This document shows, piece by piece, positions 2,446-44,054 of a DNA stretch of 64,000 nt. The stretch is from Candidatus Nomurabacteria bacterium. Lineage in GTDB: Bacteria > Patescibacteriota > WWE3 > UBA101185 > UBA10185. A model generated the notes under the pieces. The model had not been told where the DNA came from, did not search any database, and saw only the letters and a program-made list of their open reading frames with translations. The stretch spans positions 298,615 to 362,614 of the forward strand of contig JACKGU010000002.1 of the NCBI GenBank assembly GCA_020631855.1, in the 5' to 3' direction. The stretch's first letter is position 1, and the number at the start of each line of letters is the position of its first letter. Made by a program: the position numbers and the translations under genes.

Positions 2446-3591
2446 TTATTTCAGTAATTCATTATACACGTCGAAAATTTTATGAGCCGCGTTTTGCCAA
2501 GTGTACTCGCGCAGCATAAAAGACGGCACCTTTGGTCTATCCGCAAAATACTGTTCAACTACAGCGTTCTTTATCGATCTAATATCATTTGGGCTGCAGT
2601 AAGACACAAGATCGCCAAGATACTCTCTAGCTCTTTCGCCCGAAGCTACTGCATTAGAACCGCAGAAAAGAGCTTCGATACTTGTGAGCCCTGTAGTCTC
2701 AAACCAACTTGCTGAAACACACACCTTCGCTTTTCTATAAACCGCAGGCATTTGCTCATAAGGAACCTGATTAACAAAGGTTATCCAGCTATATCTTTTT
2801 AGAGCGAGGTTAAATCTTATAATATATTCCTGGTGCTTGAGTTTACTTTTTTTCCCGACAAAAACCAGTCTCAGATCCTTGCCTGTCTCTTCTCTTGCTG
2901 ATTTTACAGCATCAATTATACTTAGTTGATTTTTCCTTGCTTCAACTCGCCCAACGCACAGAATATAGTCTTCCATATCCTGCAACGCCTTTGGCATAAT
3001 TTGTTCTTTATCGTAGCCAGCAGAGTCTATGAATAGATCAGAAACTCCATTAGGTATTTTTTTCCATTTAAAATCTACGCCGTAAGAGGTTTTTAGATCA
3101 TGGGCCTCCAGCTCGGTCTGTACTAAAATATAATCCGATAAAGACAAAGCTTTTTTCTGAATATTAAATAAACCGAATCGTAAACTTTGAACAGTGGGAT
3201 AAATTTTCTTTGGCATGAAAAGTGATTTATAAACATTTTTCAATGTATCTCTTTTAAACTGATCTTTAAATACAGCCTTAGAGAGTCTTCTAAAATCAAA
3301 GGCGTATGTTTCGTCAAATAATTTTACCTCAGAAATTGAGTGGTGAATTGGTGAAAACACCAGCGGCTTACCAGACGACTTTATCGTCTCGGCGTACATA
3401 CTCGGGTCGGGGGTCCAGTCGAGCTGAAAAAGATGGACAAGATCGTAAGAATTATAATTACTAACATTGCCGGCTACGATTTCAACGTCAATACCTAGCT
3501 TTTTCAGCTCTCGGGCCGTATTCTCAATTTGAATTTTATCTCCGCCGCCCGTATCAAAAAGCTCTACACGCGCCTGCATTAAAACTTTCAT
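2446..3591 (-). CDS. Glycosyltransferase family 4 (GT-B, RfaB-like)
   Basis: ORF track 2446..3615. The GT4 C-terminal motif is 'FETTGLTSIEALFCG'. The likely true start is the internal Met (MKVLMQARVELFDTGGG) at 3591, directly abutting the stop of the upstream gene. Confidence 0.85.
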   Translation of the reverse strand: MKVLMQARVELFDTGGGDKIQIENTARELKKLGIDVEIVAGNVSNYNSYDLVHLFQLDWTPDPSMYAETIKSSGKPLVFSPIHHSISEVKLFDETYAFDFRRLSKAVFKDQFKRDTLKNVYKSLFMPKKIYPTVQSLRFGLFNIQKKALSLSDYILVQTELEAHDLKTSYGVDFKWKKIPNGVSDLFIDSAGYDKEQIMPKALQDMEDYILCVGRVEARKNQLSIIDAVKSAREETGKDLRLVFVGKKSKLKHQEYIIRFNLALKRYSWITFVNQVPYEQMPAVYRKAKVCVSASWFETTGLTSIEALFCGSNAVASGERAREYLGDLVSYCSPNDIRSIKNAVVEQYFADRPKVPSFMLREYTWQNAAHKIFDVYNELLK

Positions 3592-4745
3592 TCTGATTCT
3601 TTCTTTCTTACACATTTTTTATACAAATCTTCATAGCTACTCACGAAATCTTCTAAGCTGTAATTTTTCCTTACCACAGTATGAGCGGCAACAACTCTCT
3701 CTTTTGTGTTTAGTCCGTCAAGGCTATGAAAAAGCTCATACATTTTTACACATAAATCCTCGCTGTTCCCAGATTCAAAATACTTAACCGTACCTTTAGA
3801 AACTTCTTTCAAGACGGGTAGGTCAGAACATATGAGAGGAATATACATGTACATTGCCTCTATAAGAACAATACCGAAACCTTCTGCTAAAGTCGGGAAA
3901 ATAAACATATCGAAAGAAGCTAAATATTTAATTTTATCTTCTTCAATGAATCGTCCTGTAAAAGTAACTTTGTTAGAAATACCTAGATCTTTTGCCTGCT
4001 GCTCTAGAGACTCTTGTAAATAACCTCCGCCCGCAACCAGCAGATGTGACTTTGAGAGCTCAGGATGTGACTCCAACAAATTCGCAAAAGCCGACACTAA
4101 AAACCTATGACCTTTCTCTTCCGTAAGACGGCTTATATTACCAATAATAAAAATATCCTCAGGAAGCCCATGTTTCTTTAAAATCTCAGCCCTGTATTTA
4201 TTTTTCTGGGATTCATTTAGCTTCAGCGCATCAAAATTAACGGAATTACCTATAATCTTTAACTTCGACAGAGGAATTCCCTCCTCAAGCTTTACTTTTA
4301 AAGTCTCATTTGTCAGTGCAATTTCAGAAGAAGAAAGTAGTCTTACAGCCATGGCATAACAAATGCTATATATCTTTCTTTTATAGACAGGCACTTGCCA
4401 CTGGGAATATGGAGTATGAATGTGAGAGATACGACATCGGACTCCTGCAAGCCTGGAGGCAATAAGAGTATTTGCTACAGCCCTCAACTCATTGCAATGA
4501 ACAACCTGAATGTTATGTTTTTTTATGTATTTTATCTGCCTGTAAATATATAACGGATCTATGTCGTATTTTACTTCTACCGGAACGACGACTGCTCCGG
4601 CATTCTGGTATATCTTAGCTAGAGGTCCCTGTCGACACCATATGTGCACCTCATGGCCTCTAGACATCATTCCCTCGGCTAAGTCCAGGACGTATTTCTC
4701 CATCCCACCTATATTTGCTGAATCCAATGTGTATAAAATTTTCAT
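3588..4745 (-). CDS. Glycosyltransferase family 4
   Basis: N-term 'MKILYTLDSANIGGMEKYV' and C-terminal 'FPTLAEGFGIVLIEAM' (the GT4 EX7E-type motif region). Confidence 0.9.
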   Translation of the reverse strand: MKILYTLDSANIGGMEKYVLDLAEGMMSRGHEVHIWCRQGPLAKIYQNAGAVVVPVEVKYDIDPLYIYRQIKYIKKHNIQVVHCNELRAVANTLIASRLAGVRCRISHIHTPYSQWQVPVYKRKIYSICYAMAVRLLSSSEIALTNETLKVKLEEGIPLSKLKIIGNSVNFDALKLNESQKNKYRAEILKKHGLPEDIFIIGNISRLTEEKGHRFLVSAFANLLESHPELSKSHLLVAGGGYLQESLEQQAKDLGISNKVTFTGRFIEEDKIKYLASFDMFIFPTLAEGFGIVLIEAMYMYIPLICSDLPVLKEVSKGTVKYFESGNSEDLCVKMYELFHSLDGLNTKERVVAAHTVVRKNYSLEDFVSSYEDLYKKCVRKKESE

Positions 4746-4813
4746 TTATTTATTATACCTGATAGTTAATTACTTCTTATAAAATGTCACAATTTCGAGA
4801 CCGAAGGCTAAAC

Positions 4814-6082
4814 TTACCGGGCAGAGTCTTTACCAGATAGAAAATCTGATATTGCTTTTAACTGTTTAGATACTTTTATATCCCAAGTATTATTTTCTGC
4901 TACAGCCACCCTCGTTTTAGCTTTTACGGGATCCTTGTCTAAAACTGCCTGCCTCACCTTGTCCACGAACTCTTCTTTATCTTTAGCAACATACAAAACA
5001 TTCTCCAAACCTTCGTAAGCCGGAAGATCAGAAACTACAACAGGACACCCCGTGGAAAGAGAATTAAAAACCTTTACCGGAAAACATCCGTTATATGTAT
5101 ATTCGTTTATCACATAAGGAATTATGTATGCGTCAAAATAGTGGGTTAACTCCGCCGTAACTTCAAATGGTCTAGATCCAACACACATAACATTCTTTAA
5201 AGATTTAATCTTAACAACGGCGGGGTTTGAATCTGAAATGTAAAAATTTCCAATTAAGTAATACGTTATTTCGGGAGTTTGTTCAGCCAAGTATATAAAA
5301 AGATCAGAGTCAAATTTATATGCATCTATTGCTCCGCTATATCCTACAAGAGGACGGCTCACATTATTTAGTTCAGAAGGAAGAGATTCTGGTTTTTTAG
5401 AATATATTTCAAAATCACCTGCATTTGGGGTGTATATAATACGTTTTGTTTTTTCTGCAAAGTTTTTGTAAAGCAAAGGATGCGAGGCAAACATCAAATC
5501 AGCACGCTTTGCTAACTCATTTTCACGAAAACGAACCCACTCTTTTCCGCCCAAACCGTGCTGTTCAATGTGCTCTTTCAACCAGCGGTCTGCAAGTTGA
5601 ATTAATTTTACAACGCCTTTATTTGTAACATCTTTTCTTGCATATTCCGGAAAAAATTCGTACGCATCAACAACATCATAAATCAACACATCGGGTTTTA
5701 AATTTTTATCTAAATCCCATAACCTAGGAAAATCAAAATGATAAACCCACAATACCCTTTTCATATTTTCCAGCCCCTGTTTCTTTATGTATCTACTTAA
5801 TAGCCAGCAATGAATTTTATTTTGCAAAAACAAAAACGGCGAGAAGTTAAATTGATTTACAGGGGAATACACAGTCAAATTAGAGTTAATTTTTGAAAAA
5901 ATCCATTTTCTATTTTTCAACATCTGTTTTAAGAATTTAAAACGAGCAGGAGGATCTATAAAAATAACCTTATGCCCTAAAGATGCTGCCTTTGTCATTA
6001 CCAAGTGCTTATTAGTTTTATAAGGTATATCAAAAAATTGATTGGACAGACATATTATTAAATATTTTTCATCAGAAGACAT
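4814..6082 (-). CDS. Glycosyltransferase (GT-B fold, GT4/TuaH-like)
   Basis: The 422-aa ORF has a C-terminal nucleotide-sugar-binding half of the Rossmann type: 'NVMCVGSRPFEVT..GCPVVVSDLPAYEG'. Confidence 0.7.
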   Translation of the reverse strand: MSSDEKYLIICLSNQFFDIPYKTNKHLVMTKAASLGHKVIFIDPPARFKFLKQMLKNRKWIFSKINSNLTVYSPVNQFNFSPFLFLQNKIHCWLLSRYIKKQGLENMKRVLWVYHFDFPRLWDLDKNLKPDVLIYDVVDAYEFFPEYARKDVTNKGVVKLIQLADRWLKEHIEQHGLGGKEWVRFRENELAKRADLMFASHPLLYKNFAEKTKRIIYTPNAGDFEIYSKKPESLPSELNNVSRPLVGYSGAIDAYKFDSDLFIYLAEQTPEITYYLIGNFYISDSNPAVVKIKSLKNVMCVGSRPFEVTAELTHYFDAYIIPYVINEYTYNGCFPVKVFNSLSTGCPVVVSDLPAYEGLENVLYVAKDKEEFVDKVRQAVLDKDPVKAKTRVAVAENNTWDIKVSKQLKAISDFLSGKDSAR

Positions 6083-6084
6083 AG

Positions 6085-7539
6085 CTATTCAAAGACAGAC
6101 GGCTCGCAAACCTCGCACGCCCTTTCCAGATAACCTATCTTTACTAGCATTCTTCTTATGTTAAATGCCGCCTCGCTGTCTCTAATTGACCACAACCAGG
6201 AGGTGTCGGAGTAACCTTTATCATAAGCGGCATGCCATATTCCATCAAAAAATACCAATCCCATAAGCTGTACTGCAAATGAAACACAAACTAAAAGATA
6301 GAACGGCTTACGAAATTTCTCCTTGGCTGTAGAAGTTAAAAAAGGTATTAAAGCCAAAACCATGTAAGGCATGACGTCAGACGCCATTCTATAACCAAAA
6401 GACCACCCCCCATACCAATGTTTCCATTTACCTAAAACTATTGTGTGCATAAAAACAATTGAAATAAAAGCAACATACTGATAGTCCATTCCCGAAAAGT
6501 TTCTATTTTTTATTTTCCTAACTAGAAAGAATATTGACACGAAAATAAATAAAAAAACAGGAGAATAGACAAGAATACCCTTACTTGGAGATACCCACAA
6601 CCCAAAAAACCCGTTTACAACTTGAGACTTCCAGCCCACATCAATTTGCTCTACGTAACCTTGATTAGCAAACGATCTATAAAATTTCCCGGTGTAAAAT
6701 ATAAGAAATCCTAGAGCAGGAAATAAACCAAAAACAAATGTAAACATCGATCCCAGCAACATTCCAAGATTTTTGTACTTAGAAAAATAAATAACTATAA
6801 GAAGCACGAACCACGGAAGAACAGCTGTAGGCCTGGTAATAAAAGCTAATCCGAAAAACATTCCGGACATAAAGATGTTAAAAAAATATGAGCTCGCACC
6901 CTTAGCACTAAGATTCGGAGCTTCAATCTCTAATGCCCTGTTAAAAAATAGCAAAGCGAGCAAAGAAAAAAGTTGCAAAGTTCCAAACTGCCACATTGCC
7001 TGAGAAACAACTGCAAAATTAATAGTACAAAACAAATAAATAAATGTTAAAAAAACAGCTTTTTTACGCATGCCCGGCAAATAATATCTTTCGATCAAAT
7101 ATAAAAAAACAACTCCTGCCGCCGCCATAGTTAAAGCGCTTGAAAGGTGTGAAAGAACGTATAAATTATGCCAACTTACCGGCATGCCAAGCAGCAGTGG
7201 GGGCATAAAAACGGGCAATGCCGTGATCGCGGGGGTTATTGGAAAAGCCGATAAATAATGAGTTTGACCGGATTGATTATCGAGAGCTTTTTTTAAATAA
7301 AAAGGAGTTAATCCAAGCTCTTGCTGCTTGTCGTCGGGCTGGGGGTACGAATCAACCAGCATGTCGTAATATGAATCTAGATATAAAGTTCTCTCTTTTG
7401 AAATTGCAACAGCAGTGAAAATAGAGGGAAGAGTATCTTCAGATTGAATTGGCATTGGATTTATGCCTGTTCTATAAAGTAATACCCACGGAGCGAAAAA
7501 AAGCAAAGTATATAAAAGAAAAGACTTTATAAACCTCAT
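6085..7539 (-). CDS. Polytopic integral membrane protein, probable GT-C-type glycosyltransferase
   Basis: The 484-aa ORF has about 11 hydrophobic segments. It lies inside the glycosyltransferase operon. The C-terminus has a Cys motif 'CEVCEP'. Confidence 0.6.
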   Translation of the reverse strand: MRFIKSFLLYTLLFFAPWVLLYRTGINPMPIQSEDTLPSIFTAVAISKERTLYLDSYYDMLVDSYPQPDDKQQELGLTPFYLKKALDNQSGQTHYLSAFPITPAITALPVFMPPLLLGMPVSWHNLYVLSHLSSALTMAAAGVVFLYLIERYYLPGMRKKAVFLTFIYLFCTINFAVVSQAMWQFGTLQLFSLLALLFFNRALEIEAPNLSAKGASSYFFNIFMSGMFFGLAFITRPTAVLPWFVLLIVIYFSKYKNLGMLLGSMFTFVFGLFPALGFLIFYTGKFYRSFANQGYVEQIDVGWKSQVVNGFFGLWVSPSKGILVYSPVFLFIFVSIFFLVRKIKNRNFSGMDYQYVAFISIVFMHTIVLGKWKHWYGGWSFGYRMASDVMPYMVLALIPFLTSTAKEKFRKPFYLLVCVSFAVQLMGLVFFDGIWHAAYDKGYSDTSWLWSIRDSEAAFNIRRMLVKIGYLERACEVCEPSVFE

Positions 7540-7662
7540 TAGCTTATTCTACAATGTTTTCAGACGAATCGCACGTGCATTCTCATGCATCCTAAAGCAA
7601 CAGAAAATTCAAACCTCTGCCCGATCGTCGGTTTAGCTATTTTTAACAACACACATATAAAA

Positions 7663-9864
7663 TCAGCGATTTCTAATAAACACCGGGCCACTGGGATGTG
7701 GAATCCAAAGATTAAAACCTCCCACTATTAATCTCTTTTTTATTAGCTCATTGATAGGCTCGCTGACATCTAACCTACCGTTTTTTATCTTCGATTCTAT
7801 TTCTACGTCTTCCTTGTAATCACCAAATATCACGAGTATTTCTTTAGAGGGTTCAACATTAAATACACTACTCAGCTTTCCCGGAACAACAATACCGGTA
7901 CCCGTCAGAACATTGGCCCCGAACTCGGTAATCAATTTTGTACCATAGCTACCGCCAACACCGGTCAAATAAACTACAAATTTGCCGTCAATTTCGAGGG
8001 GGAAATCAAAAGGCACAACATACTCACGACTAATGTTAGACGGCACTGCGGAAAACTCTTCTGGGGTCATTGAAACATCATAAATTCCCTGCTTATCGTC
8101 TATGGCCGAACAGCCGGGAAAATAAACTAACTTGTTCGTATGAGACTTTAATTTACCATCGCTGCCAAGATAAAAAATTGTTGCTGAAACATCATCGCCC
8201 GGATCCAAGTCATTACAATCTAAGGTTATTTTTAATTCTGTGCCTTCCGGTCTAATGAGAGAGGGAGGGTCAAAAAGAAATAATGAGGAATACTCTTTGC
8301 CCTTAACTTTCGATACGTCAACACTATCTTCTAGTAGCTTTTTGGCCATAGAACTAGCTTTGGTGTAGTAAAAGACATACGCACTTTCTGTAGAGAGATC
8401 TCTTATGTTTTTGTGCACGAGTTTTTTAAAACCAGGGTAATGTATAACAAAATTATCTGCCATAAAAACGTTTTCCGGAGCTTCAATGTTTAAAGGCTCC
8501 ACCAGAACGCGTTTTCCGAGCTGTTTATAGTACGGGAGCATGACAACAGGATCGCGCAAACCAATAAACTGCTCATATTTCCAATCACTGCTGGGGCGAT
8601 CGAGATATCCTACAAAAAACAAAACGACCGACATAGATAATACGGACAGCGCTGTCAGAGAAATTTTGTGCACCGGAGACAGTGATTTAGTTATATTATA
8701 TTTTGATTCAATAACTAGCAGAGAAATGAGGCATAGCGAGAACAAGACAGAAAAAAAATACAATTCAAAATAAATGTGGGCAAGAGAAAAGAGTCCGACG
8801 ATCGGCACAGGAAGCAGGAATAAAATCATAGAGAATACCTTTGATTTGTTAAATTTTATTGGTAATAAAATTAATTTAGATTTTCCGGATAAGAAAAACG
8901 AGATGGCGGCGGGGAGCTGCAATAATAGCGAGGTAAACAACCAACACAATATAAGCATAGAGAGTATAAAAGAAAGTGAGGCTGAGAAAGAGTTAAAAGA
9001 CGGGGCCCTGTATAAAAGCTGAAACATATAGGGCAGGCTTACCGTGCCAACATCTTTTAATGAAATTAACAACACTAATGACAGCAAAACAAACAATATT
9101 CCAATATTGCTGAGTGTTATGTAATCTCTTACGCGCTCTATGTATGAGATTATCGACAGCAAAGCTTTTTTATAAAGCAAGGGATCAAGAAAGAGTTTGG
9201 GAGAAATTAAATATCTCTTAATCGTACTGCCCAAAGCTAGATAAACAAAGGAGAGAAGTGCTCCTGTCGCTGCGACTTCGAGACCGAAGAGATAGTCGAC
9301 ATTGAACAAAGGAGGGTTCTTCTCGATAAGATCTACGTTTGTTTTCTCAAAACCATTTGCTCTCGCAACTTCCCTTGCCTGCAGATAGAGCGAGAGGGAC
9401 TCACGTAATTTCGGGGCTATCAGAAAAGATTCAGGTATTATTGTGGCCAGATACTTACCTGAATCAATCTCCACCAAATTAACTGAAACGAGAGATGCGA
9501 AATTTTTAACCGGGACAGAGACAACGAATTCTTCAGAAAAAACGTTCTGACGATTGCAAGAGAAAAGATCTTCAATCGAAGCTTCATCATCACAAACTAT
9601 AATAGTGTCGCTAACAGGACGGCGCACCGCTTGCCATAAGTCGTCGTCATCTATCATAGAAGTTAGTAATACAACATAGCTGTCTTTTGAAGAATTTCGA
9701 TTTTGCCGGCTATTCTGAGAGTTTTCGAGAACATTTGTTTCATTTATATCCAGACCAACATTGCTGAAGTAATCAACATAATACTCATAAGGATCCCCGC
9801 CGGCACTTATGGATCCTACTAATAAAAACCATACTATAAAGTAGGCGAAAATTGCCCTAATCAT
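7663..9864 (-). CDS. Large membrane protein of unknown function. It has an N-terminal signal/anchor, an Asp-rich ectodomain, a central multi-TM block and a ~300-aa C-terminal extracytoplasmic domain.
   Basis: The 733-aa ORF begins with a hydrophobic N-terminus 'MIRAIFAYFIVWFLLVGSISA'. It contains 'DDDDLW' and a TM cluster around residues 190-420. No motif I recognise. Confidence 0.6.
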   Translation of the reverse strand: MIRAIFAYFIVWFLLVGSISAGGDPYEYYVDYFSNVGLDINETNVLENSQNSRQNRNSSKDSYVVLLTSMIDDDDLWQAVRRPVSDTIIVCDDEASIEDLFSCNRQNVFSEEFVVSVPVKNFASLVSVNLVEIDSGKYLATIIPESFLIAPKLRESLSLYLQAREVARANGFEKTNVDLIEKNPPLFNVDYLFGLEVAATGALLSFVYLALGSTIKRYLISPKLFLDPLLYKKALLSIISYIERVRDYITLSNIGILFVLLSLVLLISLKDVGTVSLPYMFQLLYRAPSFNSFSASLSFILSMLILCWLFTSLLLQLPAAISFFLSGKSKLILLPIKFNKSKVFSMILFLLPVPIVGLFSLAHIYFELYFFSVLFSLCLISLLVIESKYNITKSLSPVHKISLTALSVLSMSVVLFFVGYLDRPSSDWKYEQFIGLRDPVVMLPYYKQLGKRVLVEPLNIEAPENVFMADNFVIHYPGFKKLVHKNIRDLSTESAYVFYYTKASSMAKKLLEDSVDVSKVKGKEYSSLFLFDPPSLIRPEGTELKITLDCNDLDPGDDVSATIFYLGSDGKLKSHTNKLVYFPGCSAIDDKQGIYDVSMTPEEFSAVPSNISREYVVPFDFPLEIDGKFVVYLTGVGGSYGTKLITEFGANVLTGTGIVVPGKLSSVFNVEPSKEILVIFGDYKEDVEIESKIKNGRLDVSEPINELIKKRLIVGGFNLWIPHPSGPVFIRNR

Positions 9865-10280: not shown

Positions 10281-10283
10281 ACC

Positions 10284-14702: not shown

Positions 14703-14777
14703 ACAATACTTGTAACCATGAAAATCTGATCCTAACGAAGGGTCAGACCTCTAGCCAAAAATCGATCCATGGTTACA

Positions 14778-15632: not shown

Positions 15633-15656
15633 CTATATATGCTAAACTCTTAAAAA

Positions 15657-18225: not shown

Positions 18226-18387
18226 CAACCAGCAAACCAACCACCACCAGCTTACGCAGGTTGTTTACTGTAATTTCTTTGCGTTGCAAAGCCTAACATA
18301 TTGGGTAAAGTACATCTACTAGCTTACATAGGTAGTTTTAAGTAACGAAATTATAAAATTGAAATAAGAAACATTTCCAAAAATTAA

Positions 18388-19671: not shown

Positions 19672-19674
19672 AGG

Positions 19675-37697: not shown

Positions 37698-38993
37698 CTA
37701 ATCCAAAAGCATCTGCTCAAGCTGTCTTACATTTATATCTATGTTAAAGAGTTTCTCTGCTTTAATATAAACCGCCTCACCCAGTTTCTTAGACAATGCA
37801 GTATCTGCTGTTAGCTTTTTCACCCCGTCAACTATTGCACCGACATCCTTTTGAGGAATAATAATGCTGTTTGTTGAGTCAATTAAATCTCCAACGCTTC
37901 CTACATCTGTGGAAATTATAGGCAACTTTGCAAGTGCCGCCTCTATCAACACAGTCGGTACGCCATCTACATCGCCTTCTTTTGTCTCAATGCCAGGAAA
38001 TACAAATATATCCGAAATTCTGTAAAATTCCAGAACTTTTTCATTTGGCATGCCTTTGCCGTCACCGTGAATTATTACGGTCTCTTCGAGACCGTATTCT
38101 TTAATTTTATCCTTAATCTCGTTGTAGGTAGAAAGATCATCTGCAGGCCCTACCAGATTTACAACATGAGCAAAACCTTCATCCCTCAATATCTTGGAAG
38201 CCTCAACCATGTAAATAATTCCCTTTTTTTTAGTAAATCGAGTACCGCCTAAAAATATAGACGTTATTGCAGGCTTTTCTACGGACAATGGTTTAGAATA
38301 AGCGTCTTTATAGTCAAAGCCGTGAAACAGCAGATGAACATTACCGCTAGAGGCCGAGAGATTTGCGAACTCGATGGTTTTTCGCCATGTGTTTCCGTTG
38401 CAAACAACAATAAATTTTGCCTCCCTTGCTTTTACTGGAATTAGCGACCCTTCAACAAACACGTCTTTCGCGTGAGCAGAAACACTAAAGGGCACCCCCA
38501 ATAACTTTGCGGCAACCATTACAATTGTCGACTGATCTGACAGAAAGTGACAATGGATGTGCTCCGGCTTGTAAACCTCAAACATTCGCGCAAAAGCCAC
38601 TCCCTTAAAAAAATGGACTAATCTTGCACGATGGAATCTTTTTAAGACGCTGTTATCCGCCGCCGGATCAAAATTTTTTCTTTTTAGTTGCAACAAATAA
38701 GGCACAGAATCTTCACCTGAGATCAGTCTATGGGCTTGCCAGGTTTTTCTGGGGCGTAACAGAATATATTTTATCAGCGCCTCAAAGCAAATCTTCACCG
38801 ACAATCTTTGATAGTGAGTTTTTGCCAAAACTTTCTGCGAAGCAAAACCTGTACCTCTAGACATTGAGAGAACAGAAATATCAAGATTATCCCATTCAAC
38901 AAGCTTTCCAATCTCACGACTAATGAAAGTCTGAGACAGCATCGGAAACTGCGGAACGAAATATAGAATTTTCTTCTTTTGATCTTTACTCAT
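37698..38993 (-). CDS. Glycosyltransferase family 4
   Basis: 'IFVFPGIETKEGDVDGVPTVLIEAALAKLPIISTDVGSVGDLI'. Confidence 0.85.
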   Translation of the reverse strand: MSKDQKKKILYFVPQFPMLSQTFISREIGKLVEWDNLDISVLSMSRGTGFASQKVLAKTHYQRLSVKICFEALIKYILLRPRKTWQAHRLISGEDSVPYLLQLKRKNFDPAADNSVLKRFHRARLVHFFKGVAFARMFEVYKPEHIHCHFLSDQSTIVMVAAKLLGVPFSVSAHAKDVFVEGSLIPVKAREAKFIVVCNGNTWRKTIEFANLSASSGNVHLLFHGFDYKDAYSKPLSVEKPAITSIFLGGTRFTKKKGIIYMVEASKILRDEGFAHVVNLVGPADDLSTYNEIKDKIKEYGLEETVIIHGDGKGMPNEKVLEFYRISDIFVFPGIETKEGDVDGVPTVLIEAALAKLPIISTDVGSVGDLIDSTNSIIIPQKDVGAIVDGVKKLTADTALSKKLGEAVYIKAEKLFNIDINVRQLEQMLLD

Positions 38994-38998
38994 AAGAA

Positions 38999-40411
38999 CT
39001 ATTTTTTCCCATTCTGGCTCTTTAATAAAGCGGTTGTAACAAATCCTCTCTTCTCTTCGTCCTCAAGTAAAAATTCGTTGTATCCGTTTGTTCTCTTTCC
39101 TACAGCAAAATATGTAAAGCCCTGAGCTTCGACTTTCTTTTGATCCAAAAGGTTACGACCATCGAAAACAAATTTTCTCTTTGATGAGCCCATTGCACGC
39201 CACAACTTCTCTATGTCTATATTTTTAAACTCACCCCATTCCGTTAGTATACAAACAGCATCAACATCTTTTACAGCTGAGTACATGTCTTCGGCATAGG
39301 TAATGTCTTTATCCCCAAGTTCGCGCCTTGAGTTTTCCATTGCCTGCGGGTCATAAACCGAAACAGTTGCTCCATGACCTCGAAGCTCTCGAACAATTTT
39401 TATTGCCTTAGAATCTCTAATGTCGTCTGTATCTGCTTTGAATGCGAGACCAAGGCAAGCTATCTTTTTACCTTCCATATTAATTCCAAACACTTTTCTT
39501 ATTTTTCTAACAAAATGGTGCATTTGCGAGTCATTAACTTCCATAACACTTCTCAATAATTTGAAATCGTATGCCTCCTCTGTAGAAGTTTTATACAATG
39601 CAGCAACATCTTTCGGGAAGCAACTTCCTCCATAACCAATGCTTACATTTAAAAAGTGTCTTCCTATTCTTTTATCGTAACCCATGCCCTTAGCAACAAG
39701 ACCAACGTCTGCTCCTGCGCGCTCGCAAAGCTGGCCGATTTCATTAATAAAAGAGATTTTAGTGGCTAAAATAGCGTTTGATGCATACTTAATCATCTCA
39801 GCGGTTCTAAGGTCGCACTCAACCATAGGAGCATCTAAATGACCATAAAATTCACGTAAAACAGTTAAAGCACGCTCATTTTCTGTTCCCACAACAGTTC
39901 GATCAGTCTCCTTCATGTCCTCCAAAGCTCTGCCTTCCGCTAAGAATTCGGGGTTTGAGGCTACATCAAACTCAACGCCTTCCTCAGCGTACTCTCGAAC
40001 TATTTGTTTAACACGCTCATTAGTACCTACAGGAACGGTACTTTTAGTTATAATAACAACGTATTTATCACCTTTCTTAAGATTTTGACCGATTTCTTTT
40101 GCCACAGCCCACACATAGGATAAATCGGCAGCTCCGGTGTCGGACATAGGAGTACCTACGCATATCAAAATCATGTCTGCGTCCTTCATGCCTTCAGCTA
40201 AAGAGGTTGTAAACGAAAGTTTGCCCGTTTTGATATTTCTCAGCACCACCTCGTCAAGACCAGGCTCATAAATAGGCATAATACCCTCTTCAATCTTAGC
40301 TATCTTTTTTTCATCTATATCAACTCCAACAACGCTGTTGCCCCAGTCAGCGAACACAGCAGCACCAACTAAACCTACATATCCTGTACCTATAACACAT
40401 ACTTTTTTCAT
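38999..40411 (-). CDS. ugd: UDP-glucose 6-dehydrogenase (nucleotide-sugar dehydrogenase family)
   Basis: The N-terminal NAD fold is 'KVCVIGTGYVGLVGAAVFADWG'. The catalytic motif is 'GYGGSCFPKDV'. SD 'AAAGGAGAG' lies upstream. Confidence 0.92.
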   Translation of the reverse strand: MKKVCVIGTGYVGLVGAAVFADWGNSVVGVDIDEKKIAKIEEGIMPIYEPGLDEVVLRNIKTGKLSFTTSLAEGMKDADMILICVGTPMSDTGAADLSYVWAVAKEIGQNLKKGDKYVVIITKSTVPVGTNERVKQIVREYAEEGVEFDVASNPEFLAEGRALEDMKETDRTVVGTENERALTVLREFYGHLDAPMVECDLRTAEMIKYASNAILATKISFINEIGQLCERAGADVGLVAKGMGYDKRIGRHFLNVSIGYGGSCFPKDVAALYKTSTEEAYDFKLLRSVMEVNDSQMHHFVRKIRKVFGINMEGKKIACLGLAFKADTDDIRDSKAIKIVRELRGHGATVSVYDPQAMENSRRELGDKDITYAEDMYSAVKDVDAVCILTEWGEFKNIDIEKLWRAMGSSKRKFVFDGRNLLDQKKVEAQGFTYFAVGKRTNGYNEFLLEDEEKRGFVTTALLKSQNGKK

Positions 40412-40490
40412 TAAACTCTCCTTTAGTTAGGACCTTTACACCGGCGATTTTTTAAGAAAAGCCTCTTTATCAAAGCGGGCCCTAAATTTA

Positions 40491-41240
40491 TTACTTATAC
40501 CTTCCAAGAAGGTCATTTATTCTTACTTTTAGAACATCGGTCGACATTCTAAATGTGTTTTCAAAAAAATTTAATCTGGTTGTTTTAACGTATTTCCAAA
40601 TAACAGGTAATTCTTTAACTTTATACTTGAATTTTTTTGCTAGATATAAAACTTCGACATCAAATGCTCCGAACTGCGGGCGATTTATTTCAGGCGCATT
40701 TTCCCCATAAACCTGCAGCTTTGAGAAGATCACCTTTGCCGGCTCTCTTCTAAATAATTTGAATCCGCATTGAGAGTCTTTAATGCCCGGAAGTGCGAAA
40801 GCTTGAACCCACGCATTAAAAATTCTTCCCGCTAAATGTCTTGTAAGAGGCTCGTTAATACGAACAGCGCCCGCGCCTTCTCGCGAAGCAATCACTATGT
40901 CGTAGTTATGCTCTGTAATCCACGAAGCTAGCTTTTTCAACTCCTCTATAGGAGTAGCAAGGTCTGCATCGCACATATAAATATAATCGCCTTTGGCCTG
41001 ATACATCCCGGACCAGACGGCAGCGCTTTTACCTTTATGCTTGTTTTTTATTATTACAAGTTCTTTATAAGAAGAAGTGAGGTTTTCCAGTATCTGTACA
41101 GTATTGTCGGAGCTGCCATCGTCAACCACAATAACCTCAAATTTCTCTGAAAAAGTTCTCATAAAAGTTATGACTTGGTTTATTGTATTGGCGATTTTAT
41201 CTGACTCGTTGTAAACGGGTATAACAATGGTGTATTCCAT
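40491..41240 (-). CDS. GT2 polyprenyl-phosphate sugar synthase (Dpm1-like, soluble)
   Basis: 'YTIVIPVYNESDKIANTINQV', 'VVDDGSSDNT', 'CDADLATPIEEL'. Confidence 0.85.
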   Translation of the reverse strand: MEYTIVIPVYNESDKIANTINQVITFMRTFSEKFEVIVVDDGSSDNTVQILENLTSSYKELVIIKNKHKGKSAAVWSGMYQAKGDYIYMCDADLATPIEELKKLASWITEHNYDIVIASREGAGAVRINEPLTRHLAGRIFNAWVQAFALPGIKDSQCGFKLFRREPAKVIFSKLQVYGENAPEINRPQFGAFDVEVLYLAKKFKYKVKELPVIWKYVKTTRLNFFENTFRMSTDVLKVRINDLLGRYK

Positions 41241-41258
41241 ATGATCAATAATTATACA

Positions 41259-42392
41259 CTATTTTTTCTTCCAAATGACCTTGCTATAAATTGTAAAGTT
41301 CCACACTAATCCAATAAATATACCTATAAAAAAAGCGCCGTTTCTAACAAAAAATGACTCGCCAAAGGTCTGCTCAGAAAAATGAATTAAGAAACTTCTA
41401 AAGACAATTGGTAAATATGATGTTGCGTAGTAAAAACCTAGCTTAGCCGCAAGCTCAATCTTAGAACCTATTTTTCGAGCTGAAAACGACCAAAAATTAT
41501 TCAGGGTGAATGTAACAAACATTGCAATAAATCCCGACACTAAACTTTCTACAGAGGAGCTCATGTGCAAGAGATCGTGTAAACTAACCGCATAAAGAAT
41601 ATTAAACAGTGCTGAATCAGTAAACAGGCCAATTAATCCGACTCCAAGAAATTTAAAGAACGATTCGTTTTGTCTGTATCTTAGAGTTAAAACCGTTTTT
41701 AGAGAGTCTTGGAAATTATCTTTTTCCATTTTCGAATCCCCTCTATCTCTTAAGCCAAAGGCGATAGGAACTTCAGTTATCTTTGCACCGAGTTTATGCA
41801 TTTTATATAAAAGGTCTATTTTATATGCAAAACCTTTAGAAAGGATACTATCCAGATCTATTTTGTCTACAAAGCCACGAACACGTGAAGCCCTAAAACC
41901 CGACGTAAAGTCATTAACATTAAAAATTCCTAAAACTATCTTGGAAAAATAACTACCGCCTATACTTAATAGCTTTCTGTACAAGGCCCAATCAGATGGG
42001 ATAGAGCCCCCCTTTGCGAATCTTGAACCTATTGCGTAATCCGCCCCGGCATCAAGTGCAGCAATTAATCTTGGGATGTCGGCGGGATTGTGCTGAAAAT
42101 CAGCGTCCATCTCTACTACTACATCAGCTGACATTTCAGACATAGCATATTTAAAAGCATAAATGTAAGCCGCCCCCAGACCTCGTTTCTCGGGTTCAAG
42201 TATTACGCTCACAAAAGGGTAGAGCGCGCTCATTTCTTTAACTTTTTCCGCAGTACCGTCTGGAGAATTTCCATCCACAAAAAGAACCCTTACATCGTGA
42301 GAAAGTTCTTTAGTTTCCTGCCAAATCGCCGGAATTAAATTTCCTACATTTTCTACCTCATTATAAGTCGGGACTACAATTACAATTTTCAT
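41259..42392 (-). CDS. GT2 polyprenyl-phosphate sugar synthase (GtrB/ArnC-like) fused to a C-terminal GtrA-like 4-TM domain
   Basis: 'MKIVIVVPTYNEVENV', 'DADFQHNPADIPRLIAAL'. The C-terminus 'FFKFLGVGLIGLFTDSALFNILY..FTLNNFWSF' is GtrA-family-like. Confidence 0.85.
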   Translation of the reverse strand: MKIVIVVPTYNEVENVGNLIPAIWQETKELSHDVRVLFVDGNSPDGTAEKVKEMSALYPFVSVILEPEKRGLGAAYIYAFKYAMSEMSADVVVEMDADFQHNPADIPRLIAALDAGADYAIGSRFAKGGSIPSDWALYRKLLSIGGSYFSKIVLGIFNVNDFTSGFRASRVRGFVDKIDLDSILSKGFAYKIDLLYKMHKLGAKITEVPIAFGLRDRGDSKMEKDNFQDSLKTVLTLRYRQNESFFKFLGVGLIGLFTDSALFNILYAVSLHDLLHMSSSVESLVSGFIAMFVTFTLNNFWSFSARKIGSKIELAAKLGFYYATSYLPIVFRSFLIHFSEQTFGESFFVRNGAFFIGIFIGLVWNFTIYSKVIWKKK

Positions 42393-42395
42393 TTT

Positions 42396-42665: not shown

Positions 42666-42671
42666 GATATA

Positions 42672-43694
42672 TCAAAGGACAGTGCCTGAACTTAGTACAA
42701 AAGAAACCCCTACTAATACAACAATTAAAAATATTATATGGGCGAGAGCGTGCCCGGAGACTCTCGAAATACCCTTCTTAGAAGAATACCAGATGTCCAA
42801 AAACAACAATGAAAGTATAAAAGATCCGAAAATTCCAAACAGCAGCTTAGCTGTTAGGGATAGGTCTAAAGACAAAACAACTTTCTCCTGCCCATCGGTT
42901 CCGGACATCGAGCTCTTAAAAACTAACGGCTCAAGAGGACTTTCTGAAGCATTTTTTGCCACAATATTTTCTTGGTTTAATGTCGCCAATGTTAGTTCGT
43001 TTTGCGCATTTACTTGAGAAATATTTTCGGCGCTTTTCCCTGAACTTGAGGACGGTACTTCTGCGACAGCAGAAGTACCAGGAAAATCCTGATTTTGATT
43101 CTGAGCTGAATAAGAAGGATTACGTAGAGTTCCAAACATCTGCACGACAAGCGTAGTCTGATATCCCTCCAGCTCCCCATTTCTTACGGCAAAGCCAATT
43201 TCGGAATAATTCGGGCTTAGAAGATTTTCTCTGTGGCTTGGAGATTTATACCAAGCATCAACTACAGCTTTAGAGTTATCAAAATTTTTTGCCAAATTTT
43301 CTCCGGCATAAGCATAGTCGTATTGCTCAGAGAGAATAAAATCCCAAGGCTTTACGTTTGTGGGAGAGATATGGGCCCAATAGTTATTTGTAAACATATC
43401 CTGAGCTTTCTTGTCAGCCGCTCTATTTAGAGCTTGGTTTATTGTTAGTTCTCCCAATCCGTGCTGCAACCTTATTTGGTTTGTATATCTAAGTAAGTCT
43501 TCGGAATTAATGTTCGAAGCATAACCCAAAACTCCAGGAGCCAACTGAGGAGTTGCTCTTATAATTAAAAAAGACAAGACCAGTACGATACAGTATGTAA
43601 AAATTGCAGCCTCAGTTAAAAGAGTGGCACGCTGCTTTCCGGAAGGATGCGGCAAAAAATGGTGTTTAAAACTTTTGCTAACTTTGCTTCCCAT
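42672..43694 (-). CDS. CAP/SCP/PR-1 (YkwD-like) domain protein, membrane anchored, with a Ser-rich linker
   Basis: 'YTNQIRLQHGL', 'WYKSPSHRENLLSPNYSEIGFAV'. There is one N-terminal TM and two C-terminal TM helices. Confidence 0.8.
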   Translation of the reverse strand: MGSKVSKSFKHHFLPHPSGKQRATLLTEAAIFTYCIVLVLSFLIIRATPQLAPGVLGYASNINSEDLLRYTNQIRLQHGLGELTINQALNRAADKKAQDMFTNNYWAHISPTNVKPWDFILSEQYDYAYAGENLAKNFDNSKAVVDAWYKSPSHRENLLSPNYSEIGFAVRNGELEGYQTTLVVQMFGTLRNPSYSAQNQNQDFPGTSAVAEVPSSSSGKSAENISQVNAQNELTLATLNQENIVAKNASESPLEPLVFKSSMSGTDGQEKVVLSLDLSLTAKLLFGIFGSFILSLLFLDIWYSSKKGISRVSGHALAHIIFLIVVLVGVSFVLSSGTVL

Positions 43695-43697
43695 ATT

Positions 43698-44054
43698 TTA
43701 TTCTCCAAGAATCAGATTCATTCGAACTATTGCGGCTATCATTAAAACTATCCAAAAAATTACCTCATAAAAAACTTTAGAATCGTGATTAATACTCCCC
43801 ATCACATATAAGAAAATGGTTGATAATACAATGTTTCCAACAGTCCAACCAATAATAAGCACTAAAATACTTACCGTAAAACTTGAATGCCTCATTAACG
43901 AAAGGCTTATAAAATAAAGTGCTGTAGCTAAAGCCCCCACAACGACCTCCGCTATATCTACCTTTTTCAAACCAAAAAGAGTGTAGAATTCGGTTTCAAT
44001 AAGAGATATTACTGAAAATGAAGCTATAAATGTGATAGGCCAGAGAAAGTCCAC
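43698..44054 (-). CDS. Small 4-TM membrane protein, unknown
   Basis: The 118-aa ORF is hydrophobic. Confidence 0.5.
   Translation of the reverse strand: MDFLWPITFIASFSVISLIETEFYTLFGLKKVDIAEVVVGALATALYFISLSLMRHSSFTVSILVLIIGWTVGNIVLSTIFLYVMGSINHDSKVFYEVIFWIVLMIAAIVRMNLILGE

Follow-up and report, generated by a model that had tools for sequence, protein, structure and literature searches.

Predicted multiplicity of extracytoplasmic glycosyltransferases in a cell-surface glycan locus of a WWE3 bacterium

Introduction

Glycosyltransferase abundance is a trait of WWE3 and CPR bacteria (PMC3812714, PMC4736985). The richness of WWE3 in these enzymes was already noted in 2013, and was read as polysaccharide, glycoprotein or glycosylated S-layer (PMC3812714, Kantor et al.). 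The locus analyzed here originates from an uncultured CPR/WWE3 bacterium of anaerobic digesters, which has a tiny genome and is labelled 'candidate division WWE3' or 'Ca. Nomurabacteria' by NCBI. It raises the question of whether its many membrane proteins add sugars outside the membrane and, if so, to what. The window refers to the whole stretch of 64,000 nucleotides that was analyzed; genes are designated by their first coordinate in it.

Results

Extent and integrity of the locus

ORF layout and Pfam and NCBIfam scans showed that positions 1 to 44054 of the window form a dense, almost co-directional glycan locus, as proposed in the original prediction. The proposed size of about 42 kb was too small since the locus continues to the left of the window: the whole run of surface-sugar genes covers about 51 kb, including 44 kb inside the window. 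The additional 6.8 kb or so on the left, ending at RecO, encode a third Wzx, two GT4 enzymes, a DUF4012 protein and, just outside the window, a priming phosphoglycosyltransferase of the small Bac_transf type. Positions 2446 to 44054 contain 33 ORFs of 100 residues or more, in addition to an 81-residue gene called by others. Two genes (17287-18225 and 36632-37564), rather than the single one predicted, lie on the plus strand. These two genes and gaps of 120 to 285 nt divide the locus into at least four densely packed sub-operons. Neither a chain-length regulator nor an exporter was detected within the window.

Fifteen stretches from independent assemblies of different samples (NCBI, ENA, JGI, and Logan), among them two NCBI MAG contigs (629 kb and 73 kb), were collinear with the window, with the same gene order and 99.98-100% identity. 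Their overlaps cover positions 1 to 63991. The GC content is even across the locus (0.35-0.41).

Predicted cytoplasmic glycosyltransferases and sugar-modifying enzymes

The window encodes eight GT-B/GT4-type and seven GT2 glycosyltransferases (14778, 15657, 17287, 29091, 31232, 40491, and 41259 for the latter), one UDP-glucose dehydrogenase, and one methyltransferase, which probably methylates sugars. Three of the GT2 enzymes look like ordinary EpsE, TuaG or rhamnosyl-type enzymes; the other four are the proposed synthases described below. Whether the last two genes in the following list belong to the locus is uncertain.

2446-3615, minus: GT4-type (GT-B) glycosyltransferase (Glycos_transf_1, 5.5e-17)
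3588-4745, minus: GT4 glycosyltransferase (Glycos_transf_1, 1.7e-28; Glyco_transf_4, 8.8e-18)
4814-6082, minus: TuaH-like GT-B glycosyltransferase (Glyco_trans_1_4, 1e-6; TuaH, 2.1e-18)
13593-14702, minus: GT4-type glycosyltransferase (Glycos_transf_1, 1e-15)
14778-15632, minus: soluble GT2, ordinary EpsE/TuaG type (Glycos_transf_2, 4.4e-34; EpsE, 1.1e-34)
16603-17286, minus: SAM-dependent methyltransferase (Methyltransf_23, 8.9e-20)
17287-18225, plus: GT2 glycosyltransferase (Glycos_transf_2, 3.2e-15; rhamnosyltransferase subfamily, 1.9e-11)
30100-31077, minus: GT4 glycosyltransferase (Glycos_transf_1, 1.7e-31)
31232-32017, minus: GT2, ordinary TuaG type (Glycos_transf_2, 1.1e-26; TuaG, 3e-21)
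33924-35165, minus: GT4 glycosyltransferase (Glycos_transf_1, 4.7e-24)
35162-36508, minus: GT4 glycosyltransferase (Glycos_transf_1, 4.3e-37)
36632-37564, plus: soluble protein with weak TPR-like matches (TPR_14, 3.9e-5, and other weak ones)
37698-38993, minus: EpsE/TuaC-like GT4 (Glycos_transf_1, 6.2e-20; EpsE, 4.5e-30)
38999-40411, minus: UDP-glucose/GDP-mannose dehydrogenase, uronic acid supply (UDPG_MGDP_dh_N, 3.8e-64, with central and C-terminal domains)
42672-43694, minus: membrane-anchored CAP-domain protein (CAP, 2.2e-20) with a Ser-rich linker visible in its sequence
43698-44054, minus: 118-residue protein with about four TM helices by hydropathy and no family match

Four proposed polyprenyl-phosphate sugar synthases

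GtrB, DPMS or ArnC were the best solved relatives of all four proposed synthases, upholding this part of the original prediction, and two of the four matched over their full length.

15657-16613, minus: GtrB/PgfS-type polyprenyl-phosphate hexose synthase, GT2 with two C-terminal TM helices
29091-29816, minus: soluble DPMS/AglJ-type polyprenyl-phosphate sugar synthase (PDB 5mlz, 2.5e-20, residues 2-220; AglJ, 5.2e-31)
40491-41240, minus: soluble DPMS/ArnC-like GT2, probable polyprenyl-phosphate sugar synthase (PDB 5mlz, 3.7e-18; ArnC, 4e-18; ArnC model, 5.1e-24)
41259-42392, minus: synthase of DPMS architecture, GT2 catalytic domain with a GtrA/DPMS TM domain (PDB 5mlz, GtrA_DPMS_TM)

The match of 15657 to GtrB (PDB 5ekp, 2.3e-60, residues 14-315) includes both C-terminal TM helices (237-295); the PgfS and ArnC models gave 7e-72 and 1.2e-32, respectively. 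Residues 1-374 of 41259 align with residues 23-372 of Pyrococcus furiosus DPMS (5mlz, 2.8e-42). Its C-terminal GtrA_DPMS_TM domain (1.6e-9) is the sole detectable GtrA-type domain in the locus. TM segments are absent from 29091 and 40491, so that a lipid-phosphate acceptor is deduced for these two enzymes from their closest relatives only.

Candidate flippases and GT-C proteins

Two Wzx-like proteins and one UPF0104 protein account for two of the three flippase classes originally proposed; the third class, put forward as several GtrA-like domains, is reduced to that of 41259. We only infer the flippase roles of these Wzx-like, UPF0104, and GtrA-type proteins.

18388-19671, minus: Wzx-like (MOP superfamily) flippase candidate with about 11 TM helices (Polysacc_synt, 7.5e-16)
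24437-25372, minus: UPF0104/LPG_synthase_TM 'flippase-like' membrane protein (PF03706, 1.1e-39; TIGR00374, 2.2e-19)
25379-26881, minus: Wzx-like (MOP superfamily) flippase candidate (Polysacc_synt_3, 9e-18)

Domain, paralogy, and structure searches assigned most polytopic proteins to the GT-C fold and not to unrelated transporters, in agreement with the original prediction. One protein without a Pfam match still displayed the GT-C fold in a structure search. The predicted number of at least nine GT-C proteins stood in part: four assignments are firm, three (19675, 22615, and 32113) are probable, and two (6085 and 12101) are unproven, being based on weak hints. Outside the left third of the locus, the candidates are as follows.

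12101-13639, minus: 512-residue polytopic ORFan with about 10 TM helices, TM1 followed by ISDDWD
19675-21378, minus: probable PMT-like GT-C (PMT, 1e-4, 22.4 bits for a cut-off of 22.7), paralogue of 22615
21375-22631, minus: PMT_2-type GT-C (PMT_2, 6.7e-11, 43.1 bits) with HPDEP behind TM1
22615-24456, minus: probable PMT-like GT-C, paralogue of 19675 (UniRef label RgtA/B/C/D-like)
26897-29089, minus: DUF2079 polytopic protein (PF09852, 2.7e-28, 99.7 bits), with a 293-residue C-terminal domain by topology
32113-33927, minus: probable PMT_2-type GT-C (PMT_2, 2.6e-5, 24.9 bits for a cut-off of 26.1), with nine TM helices and a 129-residue C-terminal domain

The proteins 19675, 22615, and 32113 fall under the Pfam cut-offs, and their support comes from paralogy or profile links. 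No Pfam match was obtained for 22615, which is 27% identical to 19675 over 442 residues (2.9e-28); the joint profile of these two proteins was aligned by hhalign with the PMT region of the Wzy_C fusion described below (probability of 91%). A search by sequence retrieved no PDB relative of 26897, the DUF2079 family of which we take to be placed by Pfam in the GT-C clan. For 12101, relatives were absent outside its own cluster, PDB and Pfam gave no match, and GtrII was hit only at an E value of 1.3. Acidic motifs were found directly behind TM1 in every GT-C candidate, except that the motif of 10284 is present without any TM1.

The genes 29091, 26897, 25379, 24437, 22615, 21375, 19675, and 18388 follow each other in this order with overlaps or gaps of at most 15 nt, 29091 being located 1 nt upstream of 26897. 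Known three-component glycosylation systems include MOP/MATE flippases for lipid-phosphate-sugar donors (PMC11127046). The close, operon-like arrangement of one synthase with candidate flippases and GT-Cs fits this logic.

A core module conserved in WWE3

The left third of the locus, with the five genes listed below, makes up a lineage-conserved core module that is syntenic in six WWE3-type relatives (L097 to L102), with 20-35% identity. All other genes of the locus are probably accessory and variable between species.

1-2444, minus: Wzy_C plus PMT_2/ArnT-like GT-C fusion, N-terminal 815 of 1057 residues, the C terminus lying past the left edge
6085-7539, minus: polytopic membrane protein, possible GT-C (NCBIfam LA_3751/LA_3752 putative glycosyltransferase, 4.6e-6)
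7663-9864, minus: 733-residue orphan membrane protein, not GT-C
9861-10280, minus: 139-residue protein with about four TM helices by hydropathy
10284-12101, minus: GT-C-fold glycosyltransferase of a rare family

The fusion combines an O-antigen polymerase/ligase-like Wzy_C domain (Pfam, 2.6e-13) with matches to PMT_2 (6.1e-11), PMT (2e-8), and ArnT (NCBIfam, 3.6e-17). Its full length and its ATG at position 2444, instead of the predicted start at 2279, were read from a further stretch (L103), and the fusion is kept in L099 and L100 (32% identity). In 10284, no TM1 precedes the conserved N-terminal G-x-L-E-D-N motif, and the C-terminal globular domain is AglB/STT3-like. In all six relatives, the 10284-family and 7663-family genes enclose a gene of 138-159 codons; its representative here, 9861, is translationally coupled to its neighbors (3-nt gap and 4-nt overlap) and had no match in the Pfam and NCBIfam scans. 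In the product of 7663, a signal or anchor helix is accompanied by an alpha/beta domain and a bundle of TM helices, and the C-terminal domain is rich in beta structure and has two pairs of conserved Cys residues. This is clearly another architecture, and 7663 was rejected as a GT-C. The 6085-family gene directly follows the 7663-family gene in the WWE3 relatives. The 6085 protein carries the UniRef label 'RgtA/B/C/D-like domain' and an invariant Q-S-E-D right behind TM1; neither it nor its three homologues had a Pfam match, and its profile retrieved nothing from PDB.

Discussion

The locus is probably the main cell-surface glycan island of this bacterium, combining a Wzx/Wzy-type lipid-linked pathway with several Gtr-like extracytoplasmic glycosylation steps. 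In the first route, composed of identified families with putative functions, the small Bac_transf phosphoglycosyltransferase would prime undecaprenyl phosphate. About ten GT4 enzymes, the three ordinary GT2s, the methyltransferase, and the UDP-sugar dehydrogenase would build a uronic-acid-containing oligosaccharide at the cytoplasmic face. Following flipping by Wzx-like proteins, the Wzy_C domain of the fusion may polymerize this oligosaccharide or ligate it to an acceptor. In the second route, of the Gtr/Arn/Pgf-like three-component kind, the four GtrB/DPMS/ArnC-type synthases would attach single sugars to polyprenyl phosphate. Flipping of these donors may involve the UPF0104 protein, MOP-family proteins and/or the GtrA-type TM domain of 41259, and seven to nine GT-C enzymes, with acidic first-loop motifs and C-terminal domains predicted to face outwards, would pass the sugars to glycan or proteins at the outer face.

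The gene sequences thus support the original reading of multi-step extracytoplasmic glycosylation of a polymer or of proteins, although the locus also contains a conventional Wzx/Wzy Und-PP pathway. The predicted trios of synthase, flippase, and GT-C are physically coupled, but four synthases for seven to nine GT-Cs make strict one-to-one trios impossible. Several GT-Cs must then draw on a common donor, with different acceptors or linkages, unless they use the Und-PP-linked oligosaccharide itself.

The locus might instead juxtapose at least two independent glycan pathways rather than form one assembly line, a possibility that we place somewhat short of even. The presence of three Wzx-like and four synthase genes and the division into at least four sub-operons argue for this view, as do the relatives: within the 10 kb covered on either side, the left core module is the one part that they have in common with this locus, and their flanks differ (other glycosyltransferases, a sulfotransferase, and YfhO). 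Against it, the locus of this organism has only one priming phosphoglycosyltransferase, one Wzy_C protein, and a single uniform orientation.

A role mainly in protein glycosylation is a more tentative proposal, in which the PglL-like Wzy_C fusion and GT-Cs of the PMT_2-like kind would O-glycosylate an S-layer, a pilin or the Ser/Thr-rich tails of membrane proteins instead of decorating a polysaccharide. PglL-type O-oligosaccharyltransferases also have the Wzy_C domain, and the locus contains PMT and PMT_2 matches and AglJ-like synthases. GtrB/PgfS enzymes act with GT-Cs in protein O-glycosylation, and PgfS, from the streptococcal pathway, was the best match of 15657 among named proteins (PMC12041528). 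A glycosylated S-layer was suggested by Kantor et al. (PMC3812714), and stretches rich in Ser/Thr/Pro occur in nearby secreted proteins: 55568-56743 ends '...PTTPTPITQPSSPVQ', and the linker of the CAP protein reads SSSSGKS. However, the PMT-like proteins showed no MIR domains and so are not canonical GT39 PMTs, the locus itself encodes no acceptor protein, and the Tua-like enzymes, the UDP-sugar dehydrogenase, and three Wzx suit a polymer equally well. Protein glycosylation and the combined-route explanation that we favor are not mutually exclusive.

It is unlikely that 10284 serves as a divergent STT3/AglB/PglB-like oligosaccharyltransferase, passing the flipped oligosaccharide en bloc to protein with 9861 and 7663 as its partners, despite the constant association of the three genes. 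An alignment of 17 sequences contained no WWDXG-type motif behind the last TM helix, the acidic motif is at the extreme N terminus without TM1, and the profile retrieved no oligosaccharyltransferase from PDB by sequence. We give very little credit to an ordinary capsule, EPS or O-antigen-type cluster with polymerases, transporters or acyltransferases in place of GT-Cs: five proteins (6085, 7663, 9861, 12101, and 43698) lack a convincing family assignment and 7663 is clearly not GT-C, but the GT-C domain and structure matches (four firm, three probable) and the PDB matches of the synthases largely refute this reading, purely cytoplasmic assembly having no role for four GtrB/DPMS-type synthases. 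A chimeric assembly of separate loci is refuted by the collinear independent assemblies and uniform GC content.

The mechanism that we favor, a lipid-linked pathway with added extracytoplasmic steps, is a known one, and several of the component protein families are undescribed. What is new is the WWE3-conserved core module with its TM1-less GT-C and a family of orphan membrane proteins of about 730 residues. The locus resembles the Gtr/Arn/Pgf systems in its GtrB/DPMS/ArnC-type synthases, candidate flippases, and GT-Cs. The original claim that it goes beyond an ordinary O-antigen or capsule cluster holds for the comparison with classical clusters, although glycosyltransferase abundance as such is a known WWE3/CPR trait: beside those clusters, the locus is unusual in its number of extracytoplasmic transferases, that is, in the many enzymes predicted to add sugars outside the membrane of a CPR bacterium with a tiny genome.

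Extent, organization and authenticity of the glycan island

In the window, 58 ORFs encode at least 100 aa each; the GC content is uniform (0.35–0.41), and neither tRNAs nor Rfam features were detected. Genes are designated by the left coordinate of the ORF (e.g. 15657 for 15657–16613, minus strand). The inventory was as follows.

Positions 1–44054, minus strand unless marked (+):
GT-B/GT4-type glycosyltransferases, eight
GT2 glycosyltransferases, seven (14778, 15657, 17287–18225 (+), 29091, 31232, 40491 and 41259)
Wzx-like MOP-family proteins, two (18388 and 25379)
UPF0104/LPG_synthase_TM 'flippase-like' protein, one (24437)
Methyltransferase, one
UDP-sugar dehydrogenase, one
Weak TPR-like protein, one (36632–37564 (+))
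CAP-domain membrane protein, one (42672–43694)
Large polytopic proteins, ten
4-TM miniproteins, two (9861 and 43698)
Positions 44.1–64 kb (right third), bacterial housekeeping genes:
SAM decarboxylase, deoxyhypusine-synthase homologue, agmatinase and PAS histidine kinase
YmdB, RNase Y, RecX, RecA, GltX, PBP5, RecJ, DUF3048 and RF-2

The original prediction described a co-directional glycosylation locus of ~42 kb with all but one of its genes on the minus strand. Two genes, 17287–18225 (GT2) and 36632–37564 (TPR-like), are in fact on the plus strand, and the locus extends further to the left than the window does. Past the window's left edge were found the remainder of the Wzy_C–PMT_2 fusion gene, whose part inside the window is 1–2444 (minus strand), a third Wzx gene on the opposite strand, two GT4 genes, a gene encoding a Bac_transf (PF02397) phosphoglycosyltransferase, a DUF4012 gene and then recO. 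The Bac_transf protein (209 aa) is encoded ~5 kb past the edge on the same contig, and none is encoded inside the window. With the rest of the fusion, the third Wzx, the GT4s and the priming enzyme, the island therefore extends over ~51 kb and comprises a complete Wzx/Wzy-type route.

The DUF4012 protein (positions 18408–20378 of stretch L103, outside the window) comprises 656 aa with an N-terminal TM helix and closes the island beside the priming phosphoglycosyltransferase; its role may lie in chain length, attachment or export. Comparison of the two NCBI MAG stretches reaching past the left edge, L103 and L104, revealed a single difference between ~16 bp inside the edge and ~7.5 kb beyond it, a 30-bp indel at about position 17337, ~3.7 kb to the left of the edge. 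The indel is located in a GT4 gene, which encodes 384 aa in one MAG and 243 plus 148 aa in the other, and may represent an on/off variant of a glycosyltransferase.

Chimeric assembly of separate loci was ruled out. Fifteen stretches from independent assemblies (NCBI MAGs GCA_020631795.1 and GCA_020427845.1, and ENA, JGI and Logan) were collinear with the window at 99.98–100% identity, and their overlaps tiled positions 1–63991. The conservation of this segment at the same level in stretches L001–L016, across different studies and repositories, indicates a near-clonal WWE3 population across anaerobic digesters. Exact sequence matches were obtained from metagenomes of anaerobic digesters and related samples, on contigs of up to 629 kb. 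Differences in gene lists among assemblies, such as a 215-aa fragment of 10284, were gene-caller artefacts rather than real truncations, the DNA being identical. The same proteins carry both the 'WWE3' and the 'Ca. Nomurabacteria' labels at NCBI, and no mention of the MAG accessions was found in a literature search. An archaeal origin, prompted by the deoxyhypusine synthase, agmatinase and SAM decarboxylase genes, was rejected on the basis of RecA, RecX, RNase Y, YmdB, RF-2 and PBP5.

The genes are tightly packed. The run from 29091 (synthase) through 26897 (GT-C), 25379 (Wzx-like), 24437 (UPF0104) and three GT-C genes (22615, 21375 and 19675) to 18388 (Wzx-like) shows only overlaps or gaps of at most 15 nt and looks like an enlarged three-component operon. 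Genes 12101 and 10284 overlap by 1 nt, 10284 is separated from 9861 by only 3 nt, and 9861 overlaps 7663 by 4 nt, so that the four are coupled; 35162, 33924 and 32113 overlap by 4 nt each; and 41259, 40491, 38999 and 37698 form a further block. A promoter and terminator scan of positions 1–20000 performed no better than on shuffled sequences.

Polyprenyl-phosphate sugar synthases

The presence of four polyprenyl-phosphate sugar synthases, as initially proposed, was confirmed, with strong support for two of them and moderate support for the others. Protein 15657 matched Synechocystis GtrB (5ekp) from end to end, including the two C-terminal TM helices (2.3e-60), and its best named relative was PgfS (7e-72 against the PgfS model). 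Protein 41259 matched Pyrococcus DPMS (5mlz), also from end to end and including the GtrA/DPMS TM domain (2.8e-42). Proteins 29091 and 40491 each consist of a soluble catalytic domain, for which the best solved relatives were DPMS/ArnC (2.5e-20 and 3.7e-18, respectively) and the best named relatives AglJ, ArnC and PpgS. The three other GT2s (14778, 31232 and 17287), which served as an internal control, resembled EpsE, TuaG or rhamnosyl-type enzymes.

GT-C and flippase candidates

At least nine GT-C-like proteins had been proposed. For most of them, domain matches or paralogy made the assignment firm or probable, and it is unproven for 6085 and 12101. The fusion, 21375 and 26897 could be firmly assigned to GT-C. 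The fusion (1057 aa at full length) combines Wzy_C (2.6e-13) with PMT_2/PMT and matched the ArnT model at 3.6e-17; 21375 matched PMT_2 (43 bits) and contains an acidic 'HPDEP' motif; and 26897 matched DUF2079 (99.7 bits). Proteins 19675, 22615 and 32113 are probable GT-Cs. The first scored 22.4 bits against PMT (cut-off 22.7) and is paralogous to 22615 (2.9e-28), the joint profile of the two proteins matching the PMT region of the fusion with an hhalign probability of 91%; 32113 scored 24.9 against PMT_2 (cut-off 26.1). Protein 6085 showed a weak NCBIfam 'putative glycosyltransferase' match, an RgtA/B/C/D-like label in UniRef and an invariant Q-S-E-D motif after TM1, with no match in Pfam or the PDB. 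The sole hint for 12101 was a 'SDDWD' motif following TM1; this protein is an ORFan, with no homologue beyond its own cluster in a word-index search and none in the metagenome scan.

In each candidate, TM1 (or the N-terminus) is followed by an acidic motif, and a soluble domain of 100–300 aa is present at the C-terminus, which is the GT-C layout. The acidic motifs are predicted to face the outside, and their position after TM1 supports a putative transfer, on the outer face, from polyprenyl-phosphate-linked sugar to an acceptor. A Pfam scan covering every member of the 7663, 6085 and 10284 families detected no usable family, and the PDB search gave no meaningful match for the profiles of these families or for the single sequences 12101 and 26897. 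With single-sequence or thin profiles of polytopic proteins, hhalign gave information only when 19675/22615 were compared with the fusion.

The N-terminal TM domain and acidic loop 1 typical of PMT (GT39) were found above the Pfam cut-off in 21375 and the fusion, and just below it in 19675 and 32113. MIR domains, which lie in the large luminal loop of PMT/GT39 enzymes, were absent from all proteins scanned. For the four proteins with PMT or PMT_2 matches, PMT_2/ArnT-like (GT83-like) is a better description than true PMT.

Several classes of flippase had also been predicted. The two Wzx-like proteins, the UPF0104 protein and one GtrA-type domain, located in 41259, were found, and no free-standing GtrA was recognizable by sequence in the locus. 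The 4-TM proteins 9861 and 43698 were tested as possible GtrA-like proteins and lacked sequence support for this assignment. The candidate flippases for lipid-phosphate-linked sugars are the GtrA_DPMS_TM domain of 41259, the UPF0104 protein 24437 and the MOP-family proteins 18388 and 25379. These roles are assigned as candidates only, since MOP-family proteins can flip both lipid-phosphate-linked sugars and repeat units.

A core conserved in WWE3

The succession 10284, 9861, 7663 and 6085, together with adjoining Wzy_C proteins, was found in the same order, at 20–35% protein identity, in related loci of WWE3-type relatives (L097/L098, which are one sequence from two assemblies, L099, L100, L101 and L102). 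The flanks of this core vary between loci and encode transferases, methyltransferases, a sulfotransferase and a YfhO protein. The sulfotransferase and the YfhO-type GT-C lie beside the core at positions 10529–11413 of L097 and 3118–5415 of L099, which suggests species-specific decoration of the glycan, such as sulfation.

Protein 7663 is a true orphan. None of the 35 aligned members of its family matched Pfam, a word-index search detected no relative beyond its own cluster, and 42 relatives were identified when 1.84 billion representatives were searched exhaustively with HMMER. The structural model (pLDDT 72.4, pTM 0.53) has an anchor at the N-terminus and a beta-rich domain at the C-terminus, together with an alpha/beta domain and a bundle of TM helices. 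Two pairs of conserved cysteines speak for an extracellular location of both soluble domains.

Protein 10284 displays a GT-C fold in which, as in STT3, AglB and PglB, an STT3-like TM core is combined with a C-terminal globular domain. Two features of these enzymes were missing. In place of a D/E-x-D loop following TM1, the family has a conserved acidic G-x-L-E-D-N motif, which in 15 of 17 members starts 4–10 residues after the N-terminal methionine, with no preceding TM1. In addition, the WWDXG motif with which the C-terminal domain of these enzymes begins was not found in the alignment of the 17 sequences, the residues conserved at this place being E455 and 'FYVP'. Lacking this motif, 10284 is no canonical oligosaccharyltransferase, although its structure resembles one.

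A tentative proposal, which we consider rather unlikely, is that 10284, 9861, 7663, 6085 and the Wzy_C–PMT_2 fusion constitute an undescribed machine of CPR bacteria, passing a flipped glycan en bloc to a surface protein or wall polymer. In this machine, the obligatory 4-TM partner 9861 (~140 aa) may supply the missing first TM helix, and 7663 (~730 aa), with its disulfide-bonded, CBM-like outer domains, may bind the acceptor or the glycan.

Proposed assembly route

From the protein families identified, we infer as the best-supported reading a route of the Wzx/Wzy type combined with extracytoplasmic additions by GT-C enzymes. In the first part, an oligosaccharide would be assembled on Und-PP. 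The priming phosphoglycosyltransferase is provided by Bac_transf past the left edge, the flippases by the Polysacc_synt proteins 18388, 25379 and a third one outside the window, and the Wzy-type polymerase or ligase by the Wzy_C domain of the fusion. The TuaC/G/H-like enzymes and the dehydrogenase suggest that the polymer contains uronic acid. In the second part, which would follow the established logic of the Gtr, Arn, YfhO and related systems, GT-C enzymes would add several sugars outside the membrane, from polyprenyl-phosphate donors, onto the product of the first part or onto proteins. Donors are probably shared among the GT-Cs because there are four synthases for 7–9 GT-Cs. None of the ORFs scanned matched a Wzz, Wza or ABC exporter family, and no acceptor gene was found in the locus.

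On the plus strand of the right third, the ORF at 55568–56743 encodes a 391-aa protein with no family match, an N-terminal anchor and a C-terminal tail rich in Pro, Thr and Ser ('...EAIPTTPTPITQPSSPVQ'). Tails of this extracytoplasmic, disordered type are O-glycosylated by the streptococcal GtrB/GT-C systems. A linker similar to this tail ('SSSSGKS') is present in the CAP-domain protein (42672–43694).

Genes adjoining the island

The island is adjoined at 44111–46624 by a polyamine-type trio encoding a SAM decarboxylase (+), the deoxyhypusine-synthase homologue (−) and an agmatinase (−). In a genome-collection scan, the closest relatives of the deoxyhypusine-synthase homologue (62–68% identity) were from Syntrophales, Pelagibacterales, Bacteroidales, Micrarchaeota and Paceibacterota, a distribution that suggests frequent horizontal transfer. 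This protein may be a homospermidine-synthase-like enzyme. Two ORFs without family match follow at 46683–47797 (+), encoding a 269-aa polytopic and a 102-aa soluble protein. They overlap by 4 nt, are located directly upstream of the PAS histidine kinase gene (47801–48979) and are kept in all assemblies.

Significance

CPR bacteria (Patescibacteria) have very small genomes and are thought to live mostly as surface-attached episymbionts. Because of this lifestyle and genome size, surface display would be central to host recognition and phage evasion. If the genome is near 1 Mb, a figure typical of CPR bacteria, the ~51-kb island accounts for several percent of it, and the presence of 7–9 outward-acting GT-Cs and four synthases within 51 kb implies that the surface glycan or glycoproteome is elaborate and heavily decorated. 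Glycosyltransferases have been reported to be abundant, 'particularly [in] the WWE3 genome', by Kantor et al. (PMC3812714), who proposed polysaccharides, glycoproteins or a glycosylated S-layer. About eight genes annotated as Dol-P-Man transferases were found in another CPR lineage (PMC4736985). This kind of system is already known, the new elements being the architecture now resolved, the dense packing of outward-acting enzymes and the lineage-conserved core with undescribed families. The GT-C without TM1, the Wzy_C–GT-C fusion and the orphan membrane protein with 42 known relatives offer new families to structural glycobiology, and the near-clonal digester population, sampled in several studies, makes metatranscriptomic, proteomic and glycomic tests feasible.

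Comparison with known systems

The arabinogalactan/LAM machinery of mycobacteria and corynebacteria comprises Ppm1 and the Emb, Aft, PimE and Mpt GT-C enzymes. In mycobacteria, it uses decaprenyl-phosphate-arabinose or -mannose and is encoded by genes scattered over a 4.4-Mb genome, whereas the genes described here occupy ~51 kb within a contig of at most 630 kb. No DPA pathway gene was seen. The lipid A modification system ArnC/ArnT is related through 40491 and 15657, which match ArnC, and through the PMT_2 part of the fusion, which matches ArnT, but the ArnA/B/D/E/F set is absent. Kantor et al. reported the absence of lipid A and LPS genes from the four candidate-phylum genomes that they analyzed, including one WWE3 (PMC3812714), and the acceptor must therefore be other than lipid A. 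The archaeal Agl pathway of N-glycosylation (AglJ, AglD and AglB) shares AglJ/DPMS-like synthases (29091 and 41259) and the AglB/STT3-like fold and C-terminal domain of 10284. In contrast to this pathway, the host is bacterial, WWDXG is absent and Wzy_C and Wzx components are present. The O-antigen, capsule and teichuronic acid clusters of the Wzx/Wzy type share the Bac_transf primer (outside the window), GT4, GT2, Wzx, Wzy_C, TuaC/G/H-like enzymes and UDP-sugar dehydrogenase, and differ in that Wzy_C is here fused to a GT-C domain and extracytoplasmic transferases dominate the locus.

The logic of three-component extracytoplasmic glycosylation, recently generalized (PMC11127046), applies to GtrA/GtrB/Gtr(type) of Shigella and Salmonella phages, CsbB/GtcA/YfhO of Firmicutes and the pentofuranose system of C. 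youngae. As in these systems, a GtrB/DPMS/ArnC-type GT2 synthase, a small or MOP-type flippase candidate and a GT-C-fold transferase are encoded together, 15657 is a full-length GtrB homologue and the acidic catalytic loop is predicted to be outside. However, a single locus here encodes four synthases and 7–9 GT-Cs, instead of one of each, with an extra UPF0104 protein and several GT-Cs from families without Pfam models. Streptococcal protein O-glycosylation by GtrB/PgfS and GT-C enzymes is a close functional counterpart of the proposed additions (Pgf and GtrB/PgtC2; PMC12041528). A GT-A synthase and several GT-Cs are encoded in one operon and act outside the membrane of a monoderm-type envelope. 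The streptococcal system differs in that adhesin or acceptor genes are absent from the locus described here, and its GT-Cs are of the YfhO type, whereas those of the island are of PMT_2, DUF2079 and novel types and are deployed on a far larger scale.
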